Shown here piece by piece: positions 2,228-16,951 of a stretch of DNA of 16,951 nucleotides. Each line of letters starts with the position of its first letter. Within the stretch, counting starts at the first letter, position 1. The position numbers and the translations under genes were made by a program. The DNA lies in IMG/VR virus record IMGVR_UViG_3300029887_000063. One strand, written 5' to 3'. The DNA is from a virus. The notes under the pieces were generated by a model. The model searched no databases. It was not told where the DNA came from and saw only the letters and a program-made list of their open reading frames with translations.

Positions 2228-3067
2228 ATGCCGGCCGTGAGTATGCACAAAAAGCTGCCCCCTGCTCAGTGGCGGGACGAAATCACCCTATGGCTCGAAT
2301 CGCTCACGGCGGCGGGTCTCAGTCAGGACACGATCAACACGCGGCGGTGCAAGATAGGGCACGCGGCGCGGTGCCTGGATAAATCGCCCTATGACGTGAC
2401 GTCAGAGGATCTAGTGCATTGGACGGCCTCGCAGTCCTGGAAGGCGGAGACGCGCAAGGGCTATCGGAATACGCTCGTCGGTTTTTTCCGGTGGCTGCAT
2501 GCCACGGGCCGGCGCGCGGACGATCCGGCGGTCGCGCTGCCGAAGGTGCGCAAGACGCGGCCGCATCCCCGCCCGTGCCCCGACGCGCACATATACGCCG
2601 CCATGTGCGCCGCGAACGATGTGGAACGGCTCATGCTGCGCCTTGGTGCCGAAGCCGGGTTGAGACTGTCCGAAATCGCGGCCGTCCACTCGCGCGACGT
2701 GCTGGAAGGCGACGCCGGCCCGTCGCTGATAGTGCGGGGCAAGGGCGACAAACAGCGCATAGTGCCCATAAGCGAAGACCTGGCGAAGCGGATAACGGCC
2801 GCGCCCGGTTGGCTGTTCCCCGGCCGGTGGCGGGGACACGTCGAAAAATCGTATGTGTCCCGCCACCTCACACGGCTGCTGCCGGACGGTTGGGGGCCGC
2901 ACTCGCTGCGCCACCGGTACGCCACGCGCATGTACGAGACCACGCACGATCTGCTGCTGGTCTCGAAGCTGCTGGGACATAGCAGCGTGGAGACCACGCA
3001 AATCTACGTGGCGATGCCGGATAGCCGGCTGCGCGTCGGCCTGGACGCGGTGACGTTGGCCGGCTAG
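2228..3067 (+). CDS. int: Tyrosine recombinase / phage integrase (XerC/D-like)
   Basis: The catalytic signature is readable: GLRLSE (Arg I), KGDKQR (Lys), HSLRHRYAT (His-x-x-Arg II) and LGHSSVETTQIYV (His plus the Tyr nucleophile). There is an N-terminal SAM-like core-binding region. The start could instead be the ATG at 2243. Confidence 0.9.
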   Translation: MPAVSMHKKLPPAQWRDEITLWLESLTAAGLSQDTINTRRCKIGHAARCLDKSPYDVTSEDLVHWTASQSWKAETRKGYRNTLVGFFRWLHATGRRADDPAVALPKVRKTRPHPRPCPDAHIYAAMCAANDVERLMLRLGAEAGLRLSEIAAVHSRDVLEGDAGPSLIVRGKGDKQRIVPISEDLAKRITAAPGWLFPGRWRGHVEKSYVSRHLTRLLPDGWGPHSLRHRYATRMYETTHDLLLVSKLLGHSSVETTQIYVAMPDSRLRVGLDAVTLAG

Positions 3068-3068
3068 A

Positions 3069-3389
3069 TTATTTGCCGGCCATGCGTAGAGGGTTGTAGG
3101 CGACGCCGAAACCGCCGGTGAGCACGCCGCCCGCGAAGATGATGTATTCGCCGATGTCGGCGTGGCCCGCGAGGGCGACGCCTCCACCCGCGAGTACGGC
3201 GGCGAGGCCGACGACGTAGATCACCGTTCGGATGGTCTCGCTGAACACGGGGGTGTATCCCTTGCTTGCGTCGATCTGCGCGGCGGCTTTGTGGTCGGCC
3301 ACGCCTGGTGTGTTCGTGTCCGTGGTGATGGTGTTGTTCTCGGCGGCGAGCATCTGCTCGCTGGTGGGCTGTTGCATGTCGGCGCTCAT
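3069..3389 (-). CDS. Putative holin, 106 aa with two C-terminal transmembrane helices
   Basis: The ATG at 3389 overlaps the endolysin stop (ATGA). Hydrophobic helices are TVIYVVGLAAVLAGGGVALAG and YIIFAGGVLTGGFGVAY. Only the last 106 codons of track ORF 3069..4160 look protein-like. It sits immediately downstream of the lysin. Confidence 0.6.
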   Translation of the reverse strand: MSADMQQPTSEQMLAAENNTITTDTNTPGVADHKAAAQIDASKGYTPVFSETIRTVIYVVGLAAVLAGGGVALAGHADIGEYIIFAGGVLTGGFGVAYNPLRMAGK

Positions 3390-4171
3390 TTGGCGGTGTC
3401 CTTCTCCTGTGCGGTCATGGTGATGACGAGTTTGTCGATTTTGTCGCTGACGGCCTTGGCGGTCCTGTCGGCGATGTCCTCGGGGTTGCTGCCGAGCGCC
3501 GTGGTGAGCTTGTCGATCTGCCGCTGCTGGGCCGCGACGGTTGCCTGCAGGGCAGTGACGGCTTTCTTCACGTCGCTGATACGGCCGGGCAGTTCGTAGT
3601 TGATGGCGTTGTACATGTTGCCGCCCAACGCGCTCTTGTTGTAGTTGTATCCCCATATTTCGGCTGCTGTTGCCATGTCGATGTCTCCGTATCCGTTGAT
3701 TTGGTTTGCTTTGTTGATGATGTACCGCCAGTTGAGCCCGTTCGGGCACAGGTCCGGGCAGGCCGGGTGCGCGTATGGAGGCACGTCCCGGTGCAGGAAT
3801 ATGTTCCTGCCGCGTTCCAGCTTGCCGAACCCGTACCGGCGGGCGATGTCCGCGCATAGGCGGGCGCTGGCGTCGAGGCATGCCTGGGTGCATGGGATGA
3901 AGTCGAGTCCGCCCTGGTGCTCGATGCTGATGGTCTGGCAGTTGCTTGTGTAGCTGCCGTCCGCCCATGCGGCATCCGTCTCGGCGACGTACTGGTGGGT
4001 CTCCCCGTTGCCGCCGATGCCGTAGGTGCTTGATGCCTGGTATGAGGCACGCTGGAAGATGTTGTCGGTGCCGGCGAGCCAGCCGGCCATGATGTGAAGG
4101 GTGATGCGTGTGACGCGGTATCCCCTTCGCCCCGCGTAGTGGTTGGGGCTGCCTATCCATGTGATGCTCAT
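3386..4171 (-). CDS. Endolysin: N-acetylmuramoyl-L-alanine amidase (Amidase_2/PGRP-type) with a coiled-coil-like C-terminal region
   Basis: Start at internal ATG 4171 (MSITWIGSPNHY...). Amidase_2-like landmarks are ITLHIMAG, ASSTYGIGGNGETHQYV, AWADGSYTSNCQTISIEH and HRDV...CP. The C-terminal ~90 aa are heptad-like (VKKAVTALQATVAAQQRQIDKLTTAL...). Confidence 0.8.
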   Translation of the reverse strand: MSITWIGSPNHYAGRRGYRVTRITLHIMAGWLAGTDNIFQRASYQASSTYGIGGNGETHQYVAETDAAWADGSYTSNCQTISIEHQGGLDFIPCTQACLDASARLCADIARRYGFGKLERGRNIFLHRDVPPYAHPACPDLCPNGLNWRYIINKANQINGYGDIDMATAAEIWGYNYNKSALGGNMYNAINYELPGRISDVKKAVTALQATVAAQQRQIDKLTTALGSNPEDIADRTAKAVSDKIDKLVITMTAQEKDTAK

Positions 4172-4178
4172 CGCATGC

Positions 4179-4463
4179 TTATTCCTTTCCGTCGTCGTTG
4201 TCCTGGAAGAGCCCGTCGGGCGCGCTCGGTGGCGGTGGAGGCGCGCGCCGCCATATCGCGTCCACAAGTTCCCTGTTCCACAACCACAGGAGCTGTCGGT
4301 CTCGGGCGCTTTGGTCGAGTTGGCGTTGCGCCTCGATGAGCAGGCGGCTGGCGTCGGTGTCCTTGTCGCTGCGTGTCTTCGCCCATGTGGCCACGAACTG
4401 GACGCACGCGCCTACGGCCACGCCTCCCGTGCCGATGAGTGCGCTGATTATCGATTCGGTCAT
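4179..4463 (-). CDS. 94-aa single-pass membrane protein (possible second holin/antiholin-like lysis factor)
   Basis: The ATG at 4463 overlaps the upstream stop (ATGA). An N-terminal TM helix IISALIGTGGVAVGACVQFVATW is followed by a charged helical segment and a PPPPPSAP tail. It sits directly upstream of the endolysin. Confidence 0.55.
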   Translation of the reverse strand: MTESIISALIGTGGVAVGACVQFVATWAKTRSDKDTDASRLLIEAQRQLDQSARDRQLLWLWNRELVDAIWRRAPPPPPSAPDGLFQDNDDGKE

Positions 4464-5086
4464 GCCGGGTCGCCCGCGGTGTAGATGAAGACGATCCAGA
4501 CGTTGATGGCGGCCGTGTTCGACGAGCCTTTGCGCACGATGATCTCGCTCGGTGTGACCGTGACTTCCGAATGCCAGTAGGTGTCTGTCGCAAGGTATGG
4601 CTGCATGGAGCCGTTCTTGCCCTGTGTGATGACGTGTGCATCCAGCAGCGTATACATGTTGCTGATGCCCGGTGATGTTCTGGAATTGTTCGCCAGATTC
4701 TTGTATTCCCTTACCTGCATGTAGATTCTCCGGCCATCGACCCATTTGCGGCCGGTGTAGATCTCTGAGTTGAGTCTCCATACGCCGTTCCATGGCTGGT
4801 CGGCGTTCCTGGTCTTGACCCATTGGGTCCCGTCCCACACGTATGGGCCGTTGTCGTCGTTGCCGCCGGTGACGAAACCTGGTTGGCCGGTCACGCCGGT
4901 GATGCTGGCCAATGTTTCCAAGGTGGTGGCTATGGCGGGTTTCACGCCGGCCGGGGTGTTGCGGCTGTCCACCTCGTTGAGTGCGTTCTCGAAGCCCTCG
5001 GCCATGGTCTTGAACTGGGCGGGCGCGCTTGACACGAGGTCGCCGGCCTCGATGTAGGGCAGGCCATAGATCGGTGTGGTTTTCAT
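4460..5086 (-). CDS. Minor tail protein / putative tail fibre (receptor-binding candidate), 208 aa
   Basis: The ATG at 5086 is preceded by GGAGGAACC and overlaps the upstream stop (ATGA). The N-terminus MKTTPIYGLPYIEAGDLV resembles the conserved N-terminal motif of actinophage tail-fibre proteins. It is the last tail gene before the lysis cassette. Confidence 0.55.
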   Translation of the reverse strand: MKTTPIYGLPYIEAGDLVSSAPAQFKTMAEGFENALNEVDSRNTPAGVKPAIATTLETLASITGVTGQPGFVTGGNDDNGPYVWDGTQWVKTRNADQPWNGVWRLNSEIYTGRKWVDGRRIYMQVREYKNLANNSRTSPGISNMYTLLDAHVITQGKNGSMQPYLATDTYWHSEVTVTPSEIIVRKGSSNTAAINVWIVFIYTAGDPA

Positions 5087-6609
5087 GGTTCCTCCGTGAT
5101 GGTGGTTGGTTGCTGATAGGTGTCGACGAGGGATAGTTCGGCGAGGGTGAGTGCGCATTGACTCCACGTGGCGGGCCATGCGCCCATGCTTGCCCAGGTG
5201 GTCGCGGCAGCTGCGGCGACTGGCAGCGGCCATAACGTCACCTCGTTGCGGAGCAGTGGCCGGCCGCTCCTCCACTGGTAGGTGAGCGTGCCGCCGATGC
5301 TTGCCCACGCGCCGGATGCCGCCGGGTTTCCGTCGTCGCCGGCGAGCCGTGACGACGTGGCTCCCTGGATGACCAGCGGGCCGCTGCTGGCGGTGAGATA
5401 CAGGCGCGCGTGCGTTGCTGGGTCGAGCCTGCGGCTGTCGAACACGATGGTCTCCGGCCGCAATCGCCGGTCAACCGTGACGAGCAGACGGGAGAACGCC
5501 GCGCGTTCATCGTCGCCAGGCGTCCATACGGTGCCGCCTGCGCGGGTCCACACTCCGCCGCTTTCGTCCGCTGAAACCACGTCGGCTTCAACGGTGACGC
5601 TTGACTGGGTGGTTTTCAGGTTGGCCGGCAGCGTGCCGAGGTCGGATAGCTCGGTGTCGTGCTGGTCGAACTCAAGCACGCCGTCGCTTGCCTTCGCGGT
5701 CTTGCCCTGGATGACGAACTGCGTGACGGGTTCCGGGATGGTCAGCGTCTGTTCGTCATCGATGATGATTTCGGCAGCGTCCAAACCGTCCAGCGTCTCT
5801 CCGGTCCAGTCGGTCACGGTGAACCGTCCCACGGTATCGACGCCGAGCGTCACGGGAACGCCGAACGGCATGTAATCCAGACGGCTCACCGCACGATCCG
5901 GGTATTCGTACCAGATGGGCCACATGCTCTCATGCGCGAACGTGCGATGCAGCAAATCCAGTTGGGACGGATAATCGTCGGTCTTATAGGCCGCCATGGA
6001 ATCGGTGGAGGTCAAACCGGATACGGAGACCCGGGGAGCGTCGGCGTCGGCGGCGCGCCGGTTGAGCTCTTCCACACGGCCGCTCATGCCGGCGACCCAA
6101 TGCAGTCCCGCATACCTGGCGTCGGATGACGTTGGCCCCTGCTTCTGCAATCTCTTCCACAGGATCATGCGACCGCTGGCGCTCAATTCCAGCAGCCATC
6201 CGTCGCCATGCGGTCGCGCGTCGCCGCCGTTCTGCACCAGTCCGTCGAACAGGGTGATTGCCGTGCTGGACGTGCTGGAAGGCAGGCCGGGCGTGTAAGC
6301 CTGGTGCATCGCTTCCACTCGCATATGCTGCGCCGACCATGGGCCCATATCGTCTCGGAGCATGCCCCACGTGGGCTGTTCGCTGATCTGCACGAGCACG
6401 CGGGTCCCGGCCAATGTGAGCGCGCGGCCGGTGAGCCACCCGGTACGATCCCGCAAGGTGAACGACATCACCGACGGTTCGGGCTGTTCGGCGAGGTCAT
6501 CGGTGCCCCACTGGATGCTGAAGCCGGCCAACGCGGCCACGTCCTCGGCATGGTCGTTGACGGACTTCCAGCCGTCGCCCCAGTCCAGGAACATGAAACA
6601 CTGCTGCAC
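5083..6609 (-). CDS. Minor tail protein (distal tail / baseplate-hub-like), 508 aa
   Basis: It lies immediately downstream of the tape measure. The GTG at 6609 overlaps the TMP stop by 1 nt; an alternative ATG is at 6594. Size and position fit a Dit/Tal-type protein. No motif-level assignment is possible by eye. Confidence 0.6.
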   Translation of the reverse strand: MQQCFMFLDWGDGWKSVNDHAEDVAALAGFSIQWGTDDLAEQPEPSVMSFTLRDRTGWLTGRALTLAGTRVLVQISEQPTWGMLRDDMGPWSAQHMRVEAMHQAYTPGLPSSTSSTAITLFDGLVQNGGDARPHGDGWLLELSASGRMILWKRLQKQGPTSSDARYAGLHWVAGMSGRVEELNRRAADADAPRVSVSGLTSTDSMAAYKTDDYPSQLDLLHRTFAHESMWPIWYEYPDRAVSRLDYMPFGVPVTLGVDTVGRFTVTDWTGETLDGLDAAEIIIDDEQTLTIPEPVTQFVIQGKTAKASDGVLEFDQHDTELSDLGTLPANLKTTQSSVTVEADVVSADESGGVWTRAGGTVWTPGDDERAAFSRLLVTVDRRLRPETIVFDSRRLDPATHARLYLTASSGPLVIQGATSSRLAGDDGNPAASGAWASIGGTLTYQWRSGRPLLRNEVTLWPLPVAAAAATTWASMGAWPATWSQCALTLAELSLVDTYQQPTTITEEP

Positions 6610-10629: not shown

Positions 10630-12204
10630 TCAGGCGGTGGCCTTCGGACCCAACGGCATGACGCCGCCGGTGAACACGGTCGCGAACGCCGCGTAACCGT
10701 ACACGCTGTAATTGGAAAGCAGTTTCGTGGTGTCGTCCTGCTGGAGCTGGAACGGGCCGCCGGCCTCCCACATCTGCAACGCGGTCGGGTCGATGAACGC
10801 GGCCGTGTTCGCGGCGGCACCCGGCACCATCTGCACGGGGACGGACAGCATGCGGCCGGTGATGCCGGTAAGGCTCAGGCTGCCGAGCTTGTCCACGCCC
10901 TCGCCGGAAACGTCCATGAGCGCGTCGCCGCTGCGCGTGATCTTCGCCATCTTGTCAAATACGTCCTTGCTGACCGCGAGCGTGCCGAGCTGCGCGCCTC
11001 GGCCGTCCGCCGCCTCGGCCGCGTTGATGATGACGGTAATCCACTGGTCGGCGGTGAGCGCGCTCACGGCCGCCGGCGTCTCCAGCTTGTTCGTTGCGGC
11101 GCCGGTGATGGCGGCAGTCAGCTGCGCGCGGGCCGCCGCCTCCACCGCGTTGCTGTAAGCGATGGTGAGCGCGCGGAGCGCGGTATCGAGCGCGGGCGTG
11201 TTGCTGCGTTCGATGACCTGGCGCGACAGCGGCGCGTAACCTCCATAGGTCTTCACGGCGGCGGTCGCGCTCGTGAGCGTGATTTTGCCGGTGGTCAGGG
11301 CCTCGCCCTCGGCCGTCTGTTCGGCCACCTTCAGCGTGTTAGAGCCGAGCTTGAGATATTCCAGCGTCATGCCGGTGGCCGGCAGCGCGGCATGCTGGAA
11401 CAGGTTCGCGACGCTACGGCGCGACTGGATGAGCTTGATCTGGTCGGCGACCCACTCGTTAGTGTTGTTCGTGTCGGAGCTGGAAATCAGGTCGCGGGCC
11501 TCGCGCATGAACTCATACGCGGTGTCGTCGCCGGCCGCAAGCGCCTTCGCGAACTCGCCGGCCGAACGGTATTGGCCACCGATGACGTGCGGCGGGTCCG
11601 GCTTCTGCCGGCCGATGGTGTCCGCGAGCGAACGGATCTGCATTTCGAGCTGGTCGAAACGCGATTCCGTCGCCGGCTGCTGTTCGTTTTCCACTGTTTC
11701 CTCCTTGGTGTCGGTTTCCTGGTTGACGTGTTCCTGGTCCCGTTGGCCGGTGATGGCCGCGCCCGTGTACGCGGGTATGCCGGTGACGGCGACCTCAAGC
11801 AGTTTCACGGCGCGCCGCACGTACACGCTCGTGTCGCCCTCGGTGCGCTTGTCGGTGGTCACGGGCATGAAGCCCACGCTGAACGAATCAAGCACGCCGT
11901 CGCGGATCAGCTGCACGGCGTCGCGACCCTCGGCCGTGTCGCTGATTGACGCGGTGATGTGCAATCCGTCGGCCTCGCGCGTCGCGTTCGTGACCTTGCC
12001 GATGAGACGGCCGTGGTCACGGCTCAACTTGGTGCGTGTCGTGTCGCCGAAATCGCAATCCGGCGCGAACTCCTCGGCCGCGCCGCGCCACAATCCGATG
12101 CGTTGGCCGAACGGCACGGCGATGCCCTCGATGCGGGTACCGTCGCCCTGGTCCTCGCGTAGCTCGATGCCCTTCACGGTGATGGTGCGTACCTCTTCGC
12201 TCAT
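10630..12204 (-). CDS. Fused HK97-family prohead protease (S78) and HK97-fold major capsid protein, 524 aa
   Basis: The ATG at 12204 is preceded by GGAGG and overlaps the portal stop (ATGA). The N-terminal ~165 aa carry S78-like blocks (IEGIAVPFGQ, VLDSFSVGFMPV, LLEVAVTGIPAYTGA). An acidic linker (DQEHVNQETDTKEETVENEQQPATE) follows. Next come a coiled-coil delta-like segment (SRFDQLEMQIRSLADTIGRQ) and about 330 aa of capsid-like sequence. There is no internal stop or RBS. Confidence 0.8.
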   Translation of the reverse strand: MSEEVRTITVKGIELREDQGDGTRIEGIAVPFGQRIGLWRGAAEEFAPDCDFGDTTRTKLSRDHGRLIGKVTNATREADGLHITASISDTAEGRDAVQLIRDGVLDSFSVGFMPVTTDKRTEGDTSVYVRRAVKLLEVAVTGIPAYTGAAITGQRDQEHVNQETDTKEETVENEQQPATESRFDQLEMQIRSLADTIGRQKPDPPHVIGGQYRSAGEFAKALAAGDDTAYEFMREARDLISSSDTNNTNEWVADQIKLIQSRRSVANLFQHAALPATGMTLEYLKLGSNTLKVAEQTAEGEALTTGKITLTSATAAVKTYGGYAPLSRQVIERSNTPALDTALRALTIAYSNAVEAAARAQLTAAITGAATNKLETPAAVSALTADQWITVIINAAEAADGRGAQLGTLAVSKDVFDKMAKITRSGDALMDVSGEGVDKLGSLSLTGITGRMLSVPVQMVPGAAANTAAFIDPTALQMWEAGGPFQLQQDDTTKLLSNYSVYGYAAFATVFTGGVMPLGPKATA

Positions 12205-13322
12205 AATGTGACCTCCTGCGGTGTGGTCTGGTTGATCGGCGCCCATCCCTCACGGGCGCGCGCCTCGTCCACCGTCATGAATCCGGCGGATATGGCGGTC
12301 TGGTAGGCGCTGTAACGGGTGTTCGTGTCGGAACGATGCAACGAATCCCAGTCGGGCATGCACCATTGCCCCTCAGGCAGCAGCGACGTGAGGGCCTCGC
12401 AAATCTCGTCAGCGTAGGCCGACAAAGTGTATTCCGCGAACGTGAGCCACTCTTGCTCGATGTTCGAGTAGGTCAGCGAAGTGCCTTCCACCTTCGCGAG
12501 CATCAACGACGCCGGGATGCCCAACAGGCGGGCTATCTGCGTGGTGTTGAACTGCTGGGACTCGATGAATTGCAGGTCTTCGGGGCTCAACGCCAACGGC
12601 GTGTAGTCCAGGCCCTTGCCGAGCACGCGCACGCCGCCGGCGCCGCCCTTCGCCCACCGTTCGCTAGCGGTCCTCGCGTCCTGGTCGCTTAATATCTGGT
12701 CGCTTTTCAGGATGCCGGCGGGCCGCGCCGTGTTGTCCAACCAGTTCGATGCGTAGGCGCGAGTGTCCTGCGCTCCCTCGATCTCCTCGCGGGCCGCGCT
12801 GATAGGGCCCATGCCGCGCAAACGGCCGGCCACGTTCAACAGCTTCAGATGCACGATGCGGTCGGCGCCGTAGTCCACGCCACGGTACGAGTAGCGCAAG
12901 CGCGGGTTAGCCGGGTCCATGTTCAGGTCAGTGACGGTCACGAGCTGGGGTGGCAGACTGCGCACTCCCACGAGCACGCCGGCCGCCTCGACCTTGAGCA
13001 GGAACGCGTTACCGTTCAACGCGAGAGCGGAAACGAGGTCGCCGAACAGGTCGCGGCGGCTACGGTTCAGGTCGGGCCGGGTGATGAGCGTGCTCGGCCG
13101 CATGCGCGAGCCGTCCGGCGCGTACTGGATCAGCGGCAGCTTGCTGACCGCCGTCTCGATGATCTGCACGCCGCGAAATACGGTGGACAACGCCAGCGGG
13201 TCATGCGACGTGGACAATCGCGGCGGCAATGTCGGCGCGTCCGCTTCCTCCACGTCGTCCGTCGTCTGCGCCGCGCGAAGCAACAGGGCGGCGGTGTTGG
13301 AGATGCGGGAAATGAAGCTCAT
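12201..13322 (-). CDS. Portal protein (HK97 family), 373 aa
   Basis: It lies between terL and the protease. Size and sequence blocks fit the family (ALNGNAFLLKVE, ...QQFNTTQIARLLGIPASLM...). Confidence 0.85.
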   Translation of the reverse strand: MSFISRISNTAALLLRAAQTTDDVEEADAPTLPPRLSTSHDPLALSTVFRGVQIIETAVSKLPLIQYAPDGSRMRPSTLITRPDLNRSRRDLFGDLVSALALNGNAFLLKVEAAGVLVGVRSLPPQLVTVTDLNMDPANPRLRYSYRGVDYGADRIVHLKLLNVAGRLRGMGPISAAREEIEGAQDTRAYASNWLDNTARPAGILKSDQILSDQDARTASERWAKGGAGGVRVLGKGLDYTPLALSPEDLQFIESQQFNTTQIARLLGIPASLMLAKVEGTSLTYSNIEQEWLTFAEYTLSAYADEICEALTSLLPEGQWCMPDWDSLHRSDTNTRYSAYQTAISAGFMTVDEARAREGWAPINQTTPQEVTL

Positions 13323-13371: not shown

Positions 13372-13411
13372 AGAACATCGCAGAACGTCTAAAAACGTCA
13401 TAGAACGTCTA
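13372..13411. repeat. Four tandem, helically phased 10-bp units AGAACATCGC / AGAACGTCTA / AAAACGTCAT / AGAACGTCTA
   Basis: Read directly. Units 2 and 4 are identical, and the core AACnTC recurs every 10 bp. The last unit contains the terL stop codon. The hairpin ACGCCG-aaac-CGGCGT at 13353..13368 lies adjacent. Confidence 0.8.
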
Positions 13412-14860
13412 ACCGAAAATCTGCAACGGCGCGGCCGGCTGCGCGTGAAGCGAAGCGGTGACCGCGAGTTGCGCGGCCTCAAGCGCGTTAATCGCCTGTT
13501 CGCTGTTGCGGCGCGACAGCACCCAACTGTCGGCGACCCACCGGCGCACCGCGACGGCGGCAGCGTCGTCCAGCGCCGGATCAGGCACGTGCAACACCTG
13601 GCGTTGCATGAGCCGGTCAAGCATGAGCACGCCGGCCGCGACTATCTCCGTGTTGCCGATATCCGACAACCGGTATTCCGGCGTGCCGTCCGCCGCGACC
13701 TCATGCAACCGGTCGGCCAACGGCGCGGACGGGCCGCGCCGGTCTATGGCTATCGGCGCGCCGCCATACCGTGATTGCAGGTCGGCCAGCCGTTCGGCCG
13801 CGCCGGCGGTGCCCGGCAGCACGTCCACGATCTGCACGACGGTGACGCCATCGCGCCGGCACGCGGCGGCTATCGCGGTCGATTCCGATTCCATGCCGAC
13901 CGCGACGCCGAACGCGAGCGTGTCCAGGTCGAGCGCCGACAGGTCGAGCGGCGCGGTCTCGGTCTCCGTCCACAAGGCGGCGGGGTAGACGCGTTCGGTG
14001 CTGGACGTGTCACGGAGATTGCAGAACGCGCGCCGCCAGCCGGCCGGGTCGTCCGCGAACTGGTCGCGAAAGTCCTTGAGCTGCCGACGGTCGAACAGGT
14101 AGCCGCAACCCGGGTGCGCGCTGGCTACGGCGTCCAGGTCCTCGCTGTCCTTCGCGGGGTCAAGCCCCCAATCGAAGAACGCCCAACGTTTCGGGATGTC
14201 GCCGGCACGGCACCGGTCCAGAAGCGCGTTGTAATACTCGCTTTCGGCCGTGCCCTCCGTGCTTGTGATCCACAATTGCGGACGGACGCCCGTGGCCCTC
14301 ATGCGCGTGGTCGTCGTCGGGATAAAGCCATCCAGAATCTGCTTGGCCTGGAGCGCCGACAACGCCCACACCTCATCGAGGTTGATGAAATCGCCCTGGA
14401 AACCGTGGCCGCTGCTTTCGGTCATGCTGCCCGGCCGCAACGTGCTGCCGTTGACGAGCGGCAGCGCCATGCTGCCGTTGCTCATGCGCGGGTTCCCGTC
14501 GATCAGCGCCGCCAGAGGGGAGCGCACCACGCTTTTAATCAGCTTGCGAAACTGTTCGTTGCTATCCTTACCGGTCTGCGCGAGATACCACACCTCACGG
14601 TCGGGTCCAAGCAGCGCGTTACGCACCTGCTCGGCCTTGCTTATCGTCGTCTTGCCCGCCTGGCGTTGAACGGACACAATAACGCGGTCGTAGTAGTACG
14701 TGCCCGTTTCCGGGTCCAGCTCACCGGCCACGTCCGCTACCTGGCGTTGCCATGGGATCAGCGGCTGACCCAACGCGGCGGAGATGCGCGCCACCTTGCC
14801 GCCGTCCGTCTCACGCGAAGGGTCGCGCGGGGTCGCGTGGCGCGCCGGTGCCGGCCTCAC
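13409..14860 (-). CDS. terL: Terminase large subunit
   Basis: Walker A QRQAGKTT, Walker B-like DFINLDEVW, and an N-terminal LGQPLIPWQRQV motif. Length is typical. I place the start at GTG 14860, which overlaps the terS stop (GTGA). The track's upstream extension to 15028 is Arg/Pro/His junk overlapping terS. An alternative GTG lies near 14800. Confidence 0.9.
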   Translation of the reverse strand: MRPAPARHATPRDPSRETDGGKVARISAALGQPLIPWQRQVADVAGELDPETGTYYYDRVIVSVQRQAGKTTISKAEQVRNALLGPDREVWYLAQTGKDSNEQFRKLIKSVVRSPLAALIDGNPRMSNGSMALPLVNGSTLRPGSMTESSGHGFQGDFINLDEVWALSALQAKQILDGFIPTTTTRMRATGVRPQLWITSTEGTAESEYYNALLDRCRAGDIPKRWAFFDWGLDPAKDSEDLDAVASAHPGCGYLFDRRQLKDFRDQFADDPAGWRRAFCNLRDTSSTERVYPAALWTETETAPLDLSALDLDTLAFGVAVGMESESTAIAAACRRDGVTVVQIVDVLPGTAGAAERLADLQSRYGGAPIAIDRRGPSAPLADRLHEVAADGTPEYRLSDIGNTEIVAAGVLMLDRLMQRQVLHVPDPALDDAAAVAVRRWVADSWVLSRRNSEQAINALEAAQLAVTASLHAQPAAPLQIFG

Positions 14861-15171
14861 TGCGCCATGTCCTTGAGCAGCTGCGCGAGGTCGCCGGCCT
14901 TCGCGGACGTTTCGGACGGCTGCAACCGGTCGATGGTCTCGTTGTAGCTCGTGACCATGCGGGAGATGTCGCGGCCCTTGCGACACAGGCGGTCGATGGT
15001 GCGGGCGCACGTGAGCAGCAGCGTACACAGGGCGCGCCGTTGCGGCGTCAGCTGCGCGGCGTCCTGCAACAGCTCGGTGACGAGCTCCTTGGTCGAGCTG
15101 GTCAGCGGGTTGGTCAGCTCGTCGCTGTCCTCCATGCCCGGAAGTGTCATCTGCTTGTCGTTGTCGTCCAT
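14857..15171 (-). CDS. terS: Putative terminase small subunit, 104 aa
   Basis: It lies directly upstream of terL and is coupled to it. The ATG at 15171 is preceded by GGAG with an 8-nt spacer. It is a small helical acidic protein. The assignment is positional. Confidence 0.6.
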   Translation of the reverse strand: MDDNDKQMTLPGMEDSDELTNPLTSSTKELVTELLQDAAQLTPQRRALCTLLLTCARTIDRLCRKGRDISRMVTSYNETIDRLQPSETSAKAGDLAQLLKDMAQ

Positions 15172-15334
15172 GATTTGCGCTCCTAGCCTATCGGTGTTAC
15201 TGTCTGGAACTGGCTTCATTCCGCCGATTGGTGGAGCGCCGCGCCCTTGCCGGCGCGGCTTTTTTTATTTGGGTTGGGGATACGAAATCGGTGGGCGCGG
15301 GGTGTCCCTTGACCATGGCCGTTTAAAAAACCGG
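15172..15334. promoter_or_regulatory. Probable cos (packaging recognition/cleavage) region
   Basis: This 163-bp non-coding gap lies between the HNH gene and terS, the position cos occupies in HK97-like HNH-dependent phages. It contains a GC hairpin, an A/T tract and G-rich runs (ggttgggga...ggtgggcgcggggtgtccc). The exact ends cannot be called. Confidence 0.45.
15238..15266 (+). terminator. Canonical intrinsic-terminator structure oriented on the + strand (antisense to the operon)
   Basis: An 8-bp GC stem GCCGCGCC (15238..15245) pairs with GGCGCGGC (15252..15259) around a 6-nt loop. Seven T follow (15260..15266). On the minus strand the run precedes the hairpin as A7 and no U-tract follows. 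Confidence 0.6.
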
Positions 15335-16060
15335 CTACCATCGCGGCCGCGCCGACACGGCCGGCGGCGAAGACGGGCCGTCGATCAGGCGAAGCCGCGA
15401 AAGCTGCGTGCGCCGCGTCTCCAGCATCCCGTCCACCTTCGCTTGCGTGATGCCGAGCCGGCGCCATCGCTTCAGCAGCTCCACGTCTTCACGGCCACGC
15501 CGGCACTCGGCCATGCGCCCGCGCAACAGCTGGTCGTCGGCGTCCAGGACCACCACGTCATAGTTCAACGCGATCCACTCGGCCAGCATGTTCGGACTGT
15601 TGCGGGACGTCGGCAGCGCACGCACCAGCCACACATGCCTGGCCGTGACCATGCGGGACACACGCCGGTACGCGCTGCCCCACAACGTATCGGCCAGCGC
15701 GTGCGCCTCGCTGCCGCCGTCCACGCACGCGACCGCCAGCCTCGACGGGTCCACCACGATATCGCCCGGCGCCATGTGGTCGCGCACATACGCGGTCTTG
15801 CCCACGCATGGCGGGCCTATCACGGCCGTGACCTGCGCGCCGAAGCCGGACACCACACGATCCGCGCGCAACGAATTGCAGTGCTTGCACGCCGGCCGAA
15901 GATTGCTCGGAACGGTCGGGCCGTAGAGACTGTAAGGCTTCACGTGGTCCATGGTCTCCGTGCCCCTGTGCGTGCATCCCGGCATGTCCAGCCAACAATC
16001 GGAGCCGAACGTGAGCAGCACTTGCGCGGCCATGTTCGGCGGCACCCTCTTGCGCTTCAT
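15335..16060 (-). CDS. HNH endonuclease fused to a P-loop NTPase/kinase-like (AAA_33/zeta-like) domain, 241 aa
   Basis: The ATG at 16060 overlaps the upstream stop (ATGA) after GGGGAAGAGG. The HNH block is CWLDMPGCTHRGTETMDHVKPYSLYGPTVPSNLRPACKHCNSLRADR. It is followed by Walker A VIGPPCVGKTAYV, VWLVRALP, and VVVLDADDQLLRGRMAECRRGRED. Confidence 0.8.
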   Translation of the reverse strand: MKRKRVPPNMAAQVLLTFGSDCWLDMPGCTHRGTETMDHVKPYSLYGPTVPSNLRPACKHCNSLRADRVVSGFGAQVTAVIGPPCVGKTAYVRDHMAPGDIVVDPSRLAVACVDGGSEAHALADTLWGSAYRRVSRMVTARHVWLVRALPTSRNSPNMLAEWIALNYDVVVLDADDQLLRGRMAECRRGREDVELLKRWRRLGITQAKVDGMLETRRTQLSRLRLIDGPSSPPAVSARPRW

Positions 16061-16227
16061 TGCCTCTTCCCCATCCACTTGTTCACATCGTCCACGAGAT
16101 ACACCACGCGGCCCTCCAACATGTACCACTTCGGCCCACGGCCCTGCTTGCGCCACATGTAGAGCGTCTGACCGGACTTGCCCAGGAACTCGGCCAGCTC
16201 ACGCGCATACAGGAAACGACGGCCCAT
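16057..16227 (-). CDS. Xis/AlpA/MerR-superfamily (HTH_17) DNA-binding protein, 56 aa
   Basis: The pattern is MGRRFLYARELAEFLGKSGQTLYMWRKQGRGPKWYMLEGRVVYLVDDVNKWM. The ATG at 16227 shares one base with the upstream stop (TGATG). Confidence 0.75.
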   Translation of the reverse strand: MGRRFLYARELAEFLGKSGQTLYMWRKQGRGPKWYMLEGRVVYLVDDVNKWMGKRQ

Positions 16228-16586
16228 CAGTGGCACCACGCCTTCAACGACTGGAGCAGGTCGGCACGGTCGAAGACAAGACGGCCACCCACACGCTTCG
16301 GCTTGAGCACGATGCCCTCGCTAATCAACTGCTGCATGGCATGGTCGCCGTCCGCGTCGGTCGTCGGGCTGATGTGATCCAGCTTCAAAATCCTGATGAC
16401 GATGGAACGCTCCACGGTGTCCGTGCCGGTGGTGTCATACTCCAGCTTCGGAAGATTCCATTTCACCGCGTTCTTCATGTCCTTGGCACGGATGGCCTTG
16501 CTGGTCACATGCTCACGACGATACTTCTTCTTGACCTTCCTGCGTTTGCGTTCCTCGGTAGAAATGTAATCAACTGCATAGCCCAT
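16227..16586 (-). CDS. 119-aa basic protein with an excisionase-like C-terminal wHTH (candidate RDF or late regulator)
   Basis: I place the start at internal ATG 16586. Codons upstream of it in ORF 16227..16892 are rich in rare A/T-ending codons (ATA, CTA, AGA, ACT, TAT, TCA). The protein has a Lys/Arg-rich N-terminus, and its C-terminus LISEGIVLKPKRVGGRLVFDRADLLQSLKAW resembles Xis-type wings. Confidence 0.5.
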   Translation of the reverse strand: MGYAVDYISTEERKRRKVKKKYRREHVTSKAIRAKDMKNAVKWNLPKLEYDTTGTDTVERSIVIRILKLDHISPTTDADGDHAMQQLISEGIVLKPKRVGGRLVFDRADLLQSLKAWCH

Positions 16587-16852
16587 GATGTTGTCCCCAA
16601 TCTGTGAGTAGGTGAGTGGATAAGTCTTGTGGATGAAACGTCTTGTGTATTTCGGATGGAAGGAGGTTAGAGCGGGGAACCCTATAGCGGAAAACAGGAA
16701 GCCAAAAGGCCTCATGAATTCCAAAGGGTTCCCGCATGTGAAGCATTTCGGCATGGTGCCAAGGCCGTCGCATGTGGTCAGCGGCGCAATGCCGCGACGA
16801 AGGTCTGGACGCGCAGCGCTGGCCGTGGCCAGCCGATGGTGCCGCTTTCGTC
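16587..16852. promoter_or_regulatory. Non-coding leader of the long minus-strand operon (continues across the circular junction into 1..173)
   Basis: No convincing ORF is present. GC drops at 16590..16700. A direct repeat GTCTTGTG sits at 16624..16631 and 16640..16647, 40-60 bp upstream of the first operon gene. Confidence 0.5.
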
Positions 16853-16951
16853 CCTGGGAACACGCCACACGCCCATAGCTGTAAACCCGCACGCCTCCCC
16901 GCTAGGGACGCTTCAACCACCACGCCACACGTGGTGTGTTTGTAACGCGCT
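16853..16951. repeat. Right copy of the exact 99-bp direct terminal repeat
   Basis: Identical to 1-99. The window ends exactly where the identity would continue. Confidence 0.95.

Follow-up and report, generated by a model that had tools for sequence, protein, structure and literature searches.

A predicted cos-packaging HNH endonuclease fused to a polynucleotide-kinase-like P-loop domain in a very small temperate siphovirus

What does a kinase-like nucleotide-binding domain do on the HNH nuclease that stands beside the terminase genes of a phage? The question is raised by a gene at 15335..16060 on the minus strand of IMG/VR virus record IMGVR_UViG_3300029887_000063, a stretch of 16,951 nucleotides that was analysed at its full length and is referred to here as the window. 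HNH genes adjacent to the terminase genes are needed for packaged virions and act with terminase at cos, according to PMC12967558 (citing Kala 2014 and Quiles-Puchalt 2014), PMC3592412 and PMC5304195. Although accepted as components of cos packaging, these accessory nucleases are poorly understood. The packaging HNH proteins have about 90-120 amino acids (aa) and consist of the HNH domain only, whereas the protein studied here adds a 130-aa P-loop domain, two helices and a disordered tail. We read it, with a probability of roughly 0.6, as an accessory HNH endonuclease of the HK97-type cos packaging machine, fused to a P-loop phosphotransferase domain of the polynucleotide kinase (PNK) type.

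One gene, two domains

The open reading frame (ORF) runs in a single frame from an ATG at 16060 to a stop codon at 15335-15337 and encodes 241 aa. The furthest in-frame start of the open frame is a GTG at 16156; the ATG at 16060 was preferred because it forms an ATGA overlap with the end of the upstream HTH_17 gene, at its stop codon, and because the homologues start at the equivalent position. The original prediction, made from the letters of the window, was that one 241-aa ORF joins a complete HNH block to a Walker A domain, and the ORF, the Pfam matches and the structural models all bear this out. A sequencing frameshift or two separate genes, for which that prediction had allowed, was ruled out: one fused ORF is kept in more than 80 independent contigs and genomes. 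It was found in 132 stretches of IMG/VR contigs, 80 of which were fetched for comparison, and in genomes or metagenome-assembled genomes of Bifidobacterium imperatoris, B. angulatum, B. moukalabense and B. phasiani, of Eggerthellaceae and Senegalimassilia, and of one Mycobacterium. Both halves of the gene are under purifying selection in the one informative comparison, with the relative L013 (86% protein identity; a closer relative differed too little), in which the ratio of nonsynonymous to synonymous substitution rates (dN/dS) was 0.19 for the HNH half and 0.21 for the P-loop half. Premature stops were seen in the gene copies of two metagenomic contigs, L015 and L054, which could be pseudogenes or assembly errors. 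NCBIfam gave zero matches for the fusion protein and for the products of the small and large terminase genes (terS and terL).

The HNH (beta-beta-alpha-Me) nuclease domain was placed at residues 1-73 (15842..16060, minus strand) from its match to Pfam HNH (PF01844) and its conserved motif residues. The Pfam match covers residues 35-65 with an E value of 3.3e-7 and a score of 30.8 bits (cut-off 21.4), and the block comprises C22, C29, D38-H39, N53 and C58-K-H60-C61-N62. An above-threshold match together with a full motif confirms that the N-terminal part holds a complete HNH, as had been proposed. Assigned by motif, the four-cysteine zinc site would consist of C22, C29, C58 and C61, and the catalytic residues would be D38-H39, N53 and N62; H39 and N53 were kept in 83/83 two-domain relatives. 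A single-sequence search of the PDB sequences gave marginal matches only, the best of them to the GVE2 HNH protein (4h9d). An HNH with a Cys4 zinc site is also found in HK97 gp74, the HNH proteins of staphylococcal cos phages, Skunavirus HrdP and HNHE of Geobacillus virus E2 (4H9D). As with the packaging HNH genes, no other gene separates the fusion gene from cos and terS/terL, and it belongs to a terminase-portal-protease-capsid cluster. From this position and the motif we infer that the N-terminal half is a terminase-accessory packaging nuclease.

The polynucleotide-kinase-like P-loop domain spans residues 74-205 (15446..15841, minus strand), as indicated by profile, models, Foldseek and conservation. 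Its Walker A motif, GPPCVGKT, lies at residues 82-89 (G82-T89; nt 15794-15817), and further features are Asp104, which closes strand 2, Arg107, the lid-helix residue Arg182 and a W199-R-R motif. Pfam AAA_33 (PF13671) scored 21.3 bits on this protein alone, under the cut-off of 27, and this second domain was therefore probed by other methods. Homologues in Lactobacillus phage LF1 (gp57, 36.6 bits), Corynebacterium phage CL31 (53.2 bits) and Gordonia phage McGonagall (gp27, 27.6 bits) pass the cut-off, and PF13671 is precomputed for many relatives.

AlphaFold2 modelled the whole protein, on 21 homologues, with a pLDDT of 87.4 and a pTM of 0.84, and with disorder only in residues 228-241. Residues 74-205 alone, modelled on 32 diverse sequences, gave a pLDDT of 93.1 and a pTM of 0.87. 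When this domain model was compared with the PDB by Foldseek, the T4 polynucleotide kinase domain (1ly1) came first (TM 0.66/0.59, E = 6.7e-4, probability 1.0), followed by the kinase of Clostridium thermocellum Pnkp and then by other small P-loop kinases; nearly all of the top 50 matches were P-loop kinases. The whole two-domain model gave the same ranking, with poor TM and root-mean-square deviation because the HNH was included in the query. A profile of the domain, run against the PDB sequences, matched 4gp7 (Pnkp, E = 1.2e-3), 1ly1 (T4 Pnk, E = 4.5e-3) and 4xrp (Pnkp1), the E values being modest, in the range 1e-3 to 1e-2. These were the only matches over most or all of the domain (about positions 3-126 of 131), the others being limited to the P-loop or to the first half of the domain. 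As modelled, the P-loop domain is a genuine kinase-fold domain. The structural check that had been proposed for the C-terminal region, run on residues 74-205, thus found a nucleoside triphosphatase (NTPase) fold of the kinase kind, and the GxxxxGKT is not fortuitous. The earlier description of the layout as that of AAA_33, zeta-toxin and PNK-like NTPases stood in part. Foldseek and the PDB profile uphold the PNK-like element and AAA_33 is subthreshold here; a zeta toxin was rejected, as Zeta_toxin (PF06414) had no match at E <= 1 in this protein, nor at E <= 0.01 in seven relatives.

The best structural matches, T4 Pnk (1LY1/1LTQ; TM 0.66) and C. thermocellum Pnkp (4GP7; TM 0.55-0.60), have in common with the domain the P-loop, the Asp ending strand 2, the lid Arg and, in the clade of this protein, an Arg three residues past the Asp. 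The T4 Pnk counterparts are D35 as catalytic Asp, R126 as lid Arg and R38 as the Arg that contacts the substrate phosphate. In T4 Pnk the Arg three residues past the catalytic Asp is essential and binds the substrate phosphate. The differences from both enzymes are the identity of 13-16%, the lack of a phosphatase or ligase partner, and a context of packaging rather than repair. Because the E values are modest and the identity is this low, 'polynucleotide-kinase-like' refers here to fold and nearest relatives and not to a proven activity.

Conservation of the nucleotide site was followed through 83 two-domain proteins, of which 69 keep the GK[ST] of Walker A and 14 (about 17% of lineages) have lost it. 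Asp104 was retained in 100% (69/69) of the keepers versus 64% of the 14 losers, and Arg182 in 87% versus 14%, whereas His39 and Asn53 of the HNH were retained in 100% of both groups. Since Walker A, Asp104 and Arg182 decay jointly, they behave as one catalytic unit. Judged by these residues across the 83 proteins, the P-loop site is usually maintained and sometimes dispensable, and the nuclease is never dispensable. The protein studied here, like the rest of its clade, retains Walker A, Asp104 and Arg182 intact.

Relatives, candidate cos and C-terminal tail

The genes of the minus strand run in the order HTH_17, HNH-P-loop fusion, 163 nt of non-coding DNA, terS, terL, portal, protease-capsid, major tail protein and tape measure. 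The fusion gene had been placed directly upstream of a putative cos and terS/terL, and this is correct in the direction of transcription, which is toward lower window coordinates. Likening it to the accessory HNH proteins of HK97-type phages is also apt, because the cluster order is HNH, terS, terL, portal, protease, capsid. Strict synteny of the fusion gene, terS and terL, portal and protease-capsid was seen across about 80 viral contigs and also in genomes of Bifidobacterium, Eggerthellaceae, Senegalimassilia and Mycobacterium. Wherever the sequence of a relative extends far enough, the portal gene follows the fusion gene at a distance of about 2.1 kb and protease-capsid comes next.

A common layout was recognized past the stop codon of the fusion gene: T6A2-3, then 29 nt on CCCGCG[CT]C, a T-rich stretch, CCCC, and an A-run with a GC hairpin. 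In the window the candidate cos core occupies 15276..15331 (minus strand), with T6A3 at 15322-15331, CCCCGCGCCC 29 nt on at 15293-15302, the T-rich stretch and CCCC. The A-run and GC-rich hairpin (GCCGCGCC ggcaag GGCGCGGC) lie at 15236..15270 (minus strand), between the core and terS. The element made up of T6A3, a spacer of 21 nt and CCCCGCGCC was present in 48 of 53 distinct downstream regions of relatives, and the proteins of the relatives with this layout are only 34-47% identical to the one studied here. The physical genome ends of McGonagall and BigNuz fall in comparable sequence, C-rich and then T-rich. The conservation of this non-coding element supports its reading as a candidate cos. 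T6A3 lies in the loop of a short stem, the arms of which are GCCG/CGGC here and GACCG/CGGTC in the relative L022; stem arms that differ between lineages in this way hint at covariation. The ends of contigs L010 and L033 fall inside the GC hairpin and were read as assembly breaks, not as cos ends.

A profile search of 1.84 billion cluster representatives returned 7,758 matches at E <= 1e-3 and 686 at E <= 1e-10, numbers in which fusion, stand-alone P-loop and other architectures are mixed. The original prediction had implied that the fusion is unknown in described packaging systems. It is in fact deposited in McGonagall, LF1, Moosehead, Mbo4 and CL31 and in PHROG 4581, and the proposed survey of HNH plus P-loop architectures beside terminase genes, once run, found it to be common in related phages. 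Because the architecture is already deposited and annotated, the protein is not a new kind of system and is best described as a member of a large, uncharacterised family. A full-text literature search found no paper analysing an HNH-kinase fusion at cos; Xu et al. 2013 report zinc-ribbon additions only, and the phi16 paper merely lists 'ATPase (gp101)'.

The protein is a true homologue of the cos-adjacent proteins that SEA-PHAGES annotation calls 'polynucleotide kinase' in actinobacteriophages, and of PHROG 4581, which have the same domains and are encoded by the last gene before the cohesive end. This cos-adjacent set comprises McGonagall gp27, BigNuz gp82, Moosehead gp76, Mbo4_066, CL31 clg_01, phi16 gp101 and LF1 gp57, and Mbo4 and phi16 have documented cohesive ends with 3' overhangs. 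The set differs in domain order and number and in hosts, which for the present phage are of the gut Bifidobacterium type. McGonagall, a Gordonia phage of 17,119 bp, has the same layout as the window, with terS as gp1, terL as gp2 and gp27 as the gene nearest the right cohesive end; gp27 is 39% identical to the present protein over 113 aligned residues. GenBank labels vary: 'polynucleotide kinase' for McGonagall gp27, BigNuz gp82 and Moosehead gp76 (note 'HNH endonuclease'), 'HNH endonuclease' for Rhodococcus Mbo4_066, 'putative ATPase' for phi16 gp101, and 'small terminase subunit (endonuclease domain)' for Corynebacterium CL31 clg_01. LF1 gp57 has both HNH and AAA_33 over the Pfam thresholds.

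Domain order is HNH then P-loop in the present protein, McGonagall gp27 and LF1 gp57, and P-loop then HNH in Moosehead gp76, Mbo4_066, P0128 and P0155; CL31 clg_01 has two P-loop domains followed by the HNH. In BigNuz the HNH (gp81) and the P-loop (gp82) are separate genes that overlap by 4 nt and are the last before cos. The module also occurs N-terminal to the S78 prohead protease (BFK20 gp5, phi674, P0177, P0139 and LGCM-VI_0026, the last a close homologue of BFK20 gp5 though GenBank calls it 'capsid and scaffold protein') and N-terminal to a scaffolding protein (P0142). The P-loop-protease fusions of BFK20 (gp5), phi674 and LGCM-VI (0026), which make up phrog_9644, share the P-loop module seen here but carry it between the portal and capsid genes, with an HNH that has the Trp tail described below as a separate last gene (BFK20 gp55, LGCM-VI_0021). 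Two metagenomic proteins have a third domain: P0155 consists of P-loop, RapZ C-terminal domain and HNH, and P0139 of P-loop, 2H (2',5'-RNA-ligase-type) phosphoesterase and S78 prohead protease. The P-loop module is found in cos phages of Actinomycetota and some Bacillota; it is mobile, yet confined to head/packaging clusters in all sampled records.

The protein ends in a disordered Pro/Ser/Ala-rich linker closing with RPRW-COOH (residues 228-241; 15338..15379, minus strand; pLDDT < 50). Tail statistics gave [ST][RE]xW-COOH after a disordered linker as the family-wide C-terminal motif: a C-terminal Trp, mostly as part of [ST][RE]xW, was counted in 44 of 72 HNH-P-loop proteins and in 21 of 33 P-loop proteins that stand alone. 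HNH-only last genes have the tail as well, namely Coeur gp26 (L101; ...APSRDW), BFK20 gp55 (L104; ...PSEAW) and LGCM-VI_0021 (L105; ...LSEQW). The HNH-only BigNuz gp81 (L097) ends in ...AMDW, and the P-loop protein gp82 is also in the tail-sharing set. The tail is common to HNH-only, P-loop-only and fused cos-adjacent proteins of actinophages; most of the cos-adjacent set listed above have it, the CL31 and LF1 homologues being without it. Within the window the fusion protein is the sole protein that ends in Trp, and the same holds for its homologue in McGonagall. This tail may be a shared docking peptide.

New here are the confinement of the module to head/packaging clusters, the joint decay of its site in about 17% of lineages and the shared [ST][RE]xW tail. 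The fusion pattern, the joint loss of catalytic residues and the Trp tail are concrete experimental handles, and the analysis supplies candidates for a cos motif and for a docking peptide. Phages of about 17 kb suit genetic dissection because they have few genes, and McGonagall is a cultured example of a fusion-carrying phage of this size.

Proposed function and its alternatives

If the protein is a packaging nuclease fused to a phosphotransferase, the HNH half would nick DNA at cos with TerL, by analogy with HK97 gp74 and related proteins, and the P-loop half would bind ATP or another NTP and transfer phosphate by means of Lys88/Thr89, Asp104 and Arg182. The likeliest target of such a kinase would be a DNA end with a 5'-OH, at cos or close to it; if the target is not a DNA end, the domain could serve as a nucleotide-gated switch that restricts nicking by the HNH to the assembled terminase-cos complex. 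The disordered linker and RPRW would dock the protein on a packaging partner (TerL, TerS or portal). End phosphorylation, or energising or regulating the assembly of HNH and terminase, are the leading candidates for the role of the P-loop half.

Several observations weigh against this assignment. HNH and RNase-H-type nucleases leave 5'-phosphates, and a DNA-end kinase is therefore without an obvious need. Catalysis by the P-loop is not always required, because about 17% of lineages have lost the motif and yet keep the domain. The AAA_33 score is subthreshold for this sequence alone. In two respects the site departs from T4 Pnk and Pnkp: the Arg past the Asp is not conserved in the family, the position of Arg107 (three past Asp104) being Arg in this clade and varying among A/R/V/L across the family, and the acidic Walker B residue is missing after strand 3. 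Nor is docking to TerL a given, because the HNH protein of Skunavirus sk1 forms no stable complex with TerL (PMC12967558).

The recurrence of a kinase-like module on or beside HNH, protease and scaffold suggests a further step of head assembly or genome maturation that the model systems have not revealed. A broader proposal, which we put forward tentatively and regard as possible but doubtful, is that the PNK-like module and the [ST][RE]xW peptide form an additional, hitherto unrecognised component of the HK97-type packaging machines of phages of Actinomycetota and some Bacillota. The shared tail would recruit a nuclease and an ATP-dependent kinase to terminase or portal, and genome maturation would require phosphotransfer, either to a cos DNA end or to a protein of the head or the packaging machinery.

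The P-loop half could instead be a nucleic-acid repair kinase for counter-defence, for example one that heals tRNA or mRNA cut by anticodon nucleases, and could stand beside the HNH only through a shared late-operon start. T4 Pnk heals RNA cut by host anticodon nucleases, and T4 Pnk and Pnkp are the nearest folds. In P0139 the P-loop is coupled with a 2H phosphoesterase, the classic combination for end healing, and P0155 carries the RapZ C-terminal domain, which is RNA-binding. Pairs of PNK and RNA ligase in actinophages have also been read as counter-defence (PMC7302621). The annotated genes of the 16.9-kb genome, however, include no ligase or phosphatase partner, and P0139 is itself fused to the prohead protease. 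In 51 phage records (one stand-alone P-loop query, the permuted prophage records not being checked singly) the module was never in the early or DNA-metabolism region, and the records that were inspected place it at cos or fused to protease. The C-terminal tail, moreover, is common to the module and to HNH-only packaging proteins. We consider a repair kinase unlikely. The original prediction had also raised a toxin-like or anti-defence activity on an HNH scaffold, and this was not borne out. Septu PtuA/PtuB and other ATPase-plus-HNH defence systems likewise have a P-loop NTPase and an HNH nuclease, but here the P-loop part is without a match among defence families, and the surroundings are those of a late operon in a phage. 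With the PADLOC models only residues 26-72, in the HNH, matched, and weakly (PtuB, E = 0.0096), and the stand-alone P-loop relatives matched nothing; a defence system was rejected, the P-loop part having no PADLOC family match.

The protease and scaffold fusions admit another explanation, namely that the P-loop module is cargo or an effector for the capsid and perhaps the next host, the tail and these fusions being means of capsid targeting and the HNH fusion another route to the procapsid vertex. It accounts for a module at the N-terminus of protease (BFK20 gp5, LGCM-VI_0026, P0177, P0139) and of scaffold (P0142), and the GenBank note to BFK20 gp5 reads 'experimentally confirmed presence among structural proteins'. 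That note does not identify the portion of gp5 that the virion contains. We know of no HNH accessory protein that is a virion component, and beyond the HNH part neither a toxin or defence family nor Zeta_toxin was matched, which makes the explanation improbable. Nor do we give much credence to the idea that the domain is a structural spacer or oligomerisation scaffold for the HNH, with a vestigial nucleotide site here as in some relatives. The 14/83 two-domain relatives without GK[ST] do keep the domain, and often the tail, but Walker A, Asp104 and Arg182 are intact in the present protein. Because joint decay elsewhere is the signature of a working site, the site should work where its residues are present; the dN/dS of 0.21 in the P-loop half also speaks against a mere scaffold.

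A small terminase subunit or a selfish homing HNH endonuclease is very improbable indeed. The best family match of the protein is to PHROG 4581, 'terminase small subunit' (phrog_4581, E = 4.4e-20), and the RefSeq labels of McGonagall gp27, LF1 gp57 and BigNuz gp82 agree with it. The match spans both domains but is limited to the HNH and P-loop, a separate terS-sized gene lies between cos and terL here and in McGonagall, BigNuz and BFK20, and GenBank submitters label the same proteins 'polynucleotide kinase' or 'HNH endonuclease'. On the first two grounds a TerS identity was rejected. The 'terminase small subunit' label (PHROG 4581; RefSeq NC_030912 gp27, NC_019486 gp57 and NC_023692 gp82) looks like a propagated error, because each of these genomes has a separate terS beside terL; that the label is wrong for these proteins is a practical outcome of the analysis. 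Against a homing endonuclease stand the fixed position and the same neighbours across relatives with proteins 34-47% identical.

Genome setting

Positions 1-99 of the window are repeated exactly and in direct orientation at 16853-16951. From this recurrence of the first 99 nt at the end, the window is a complete genome of about 16,852 bp, assembled as a circle. The genome belongs to a very small temperate siphovirus of the McGonagall kind, with relatives in Bifidobacterium and Coriobacteriia genomes. A tyrosine integrase is encoded at 2228-3067 on the plus strand, and a DUF739-type regulator is also encoded. No Pfam or PHROG match was found for four ORFs past the tape measure (363, 157, 282 and 508 aa; 3069-6609) or for a 221-aa early ORF (16227-16892), all on the minus strand; presumably they have minor tail, lysis and early functions. 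Pfam and PHROG identified no lysin among the ORFs of the window.

The HTH_17 (excisionase/MerR-like) gene at 16057..16239 (minus strand) lies directly upstream of the fusion gene, is translationally coupled to it and keeps this position in relatives. On the other side of the candidate cos, the probable terS occupies 14857..15171 (minus strand) and encodes 104 aa from an ATG at 15171, with a GGAG ribosome-binding site at 15180-15183; its ORF extends to 15219. A weak match to phrog_1496 (E = 0.009) and a position and size like those of its counterparts in relatives and of McGonagall gp1 argue for this assignment. The terL gene (13409..14860, minus strand; phrog_9, E = 2.6e-37) encodes 483 aa from a GTG at 14860 that overlaps the terS stop codon as GTGA, in an ORF that extends to 15028. 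The true products of terS and terL are likely to start later than the maximal ORFs and thus to be shorter. The portal protein is encoded at 12201..13322 (minus strand; phrog_12, E = 1.4e-70), and a prohead protease-major capsid fusion at 10630..12246 (minus strand) matches phrog_2263 and phrog_80, with Peptidase_S78 and Phage_capsid in homologues. Protease (S78) and capsid are here one 538-aa ORF, as they are in all relatives and in McGonagall gp7.

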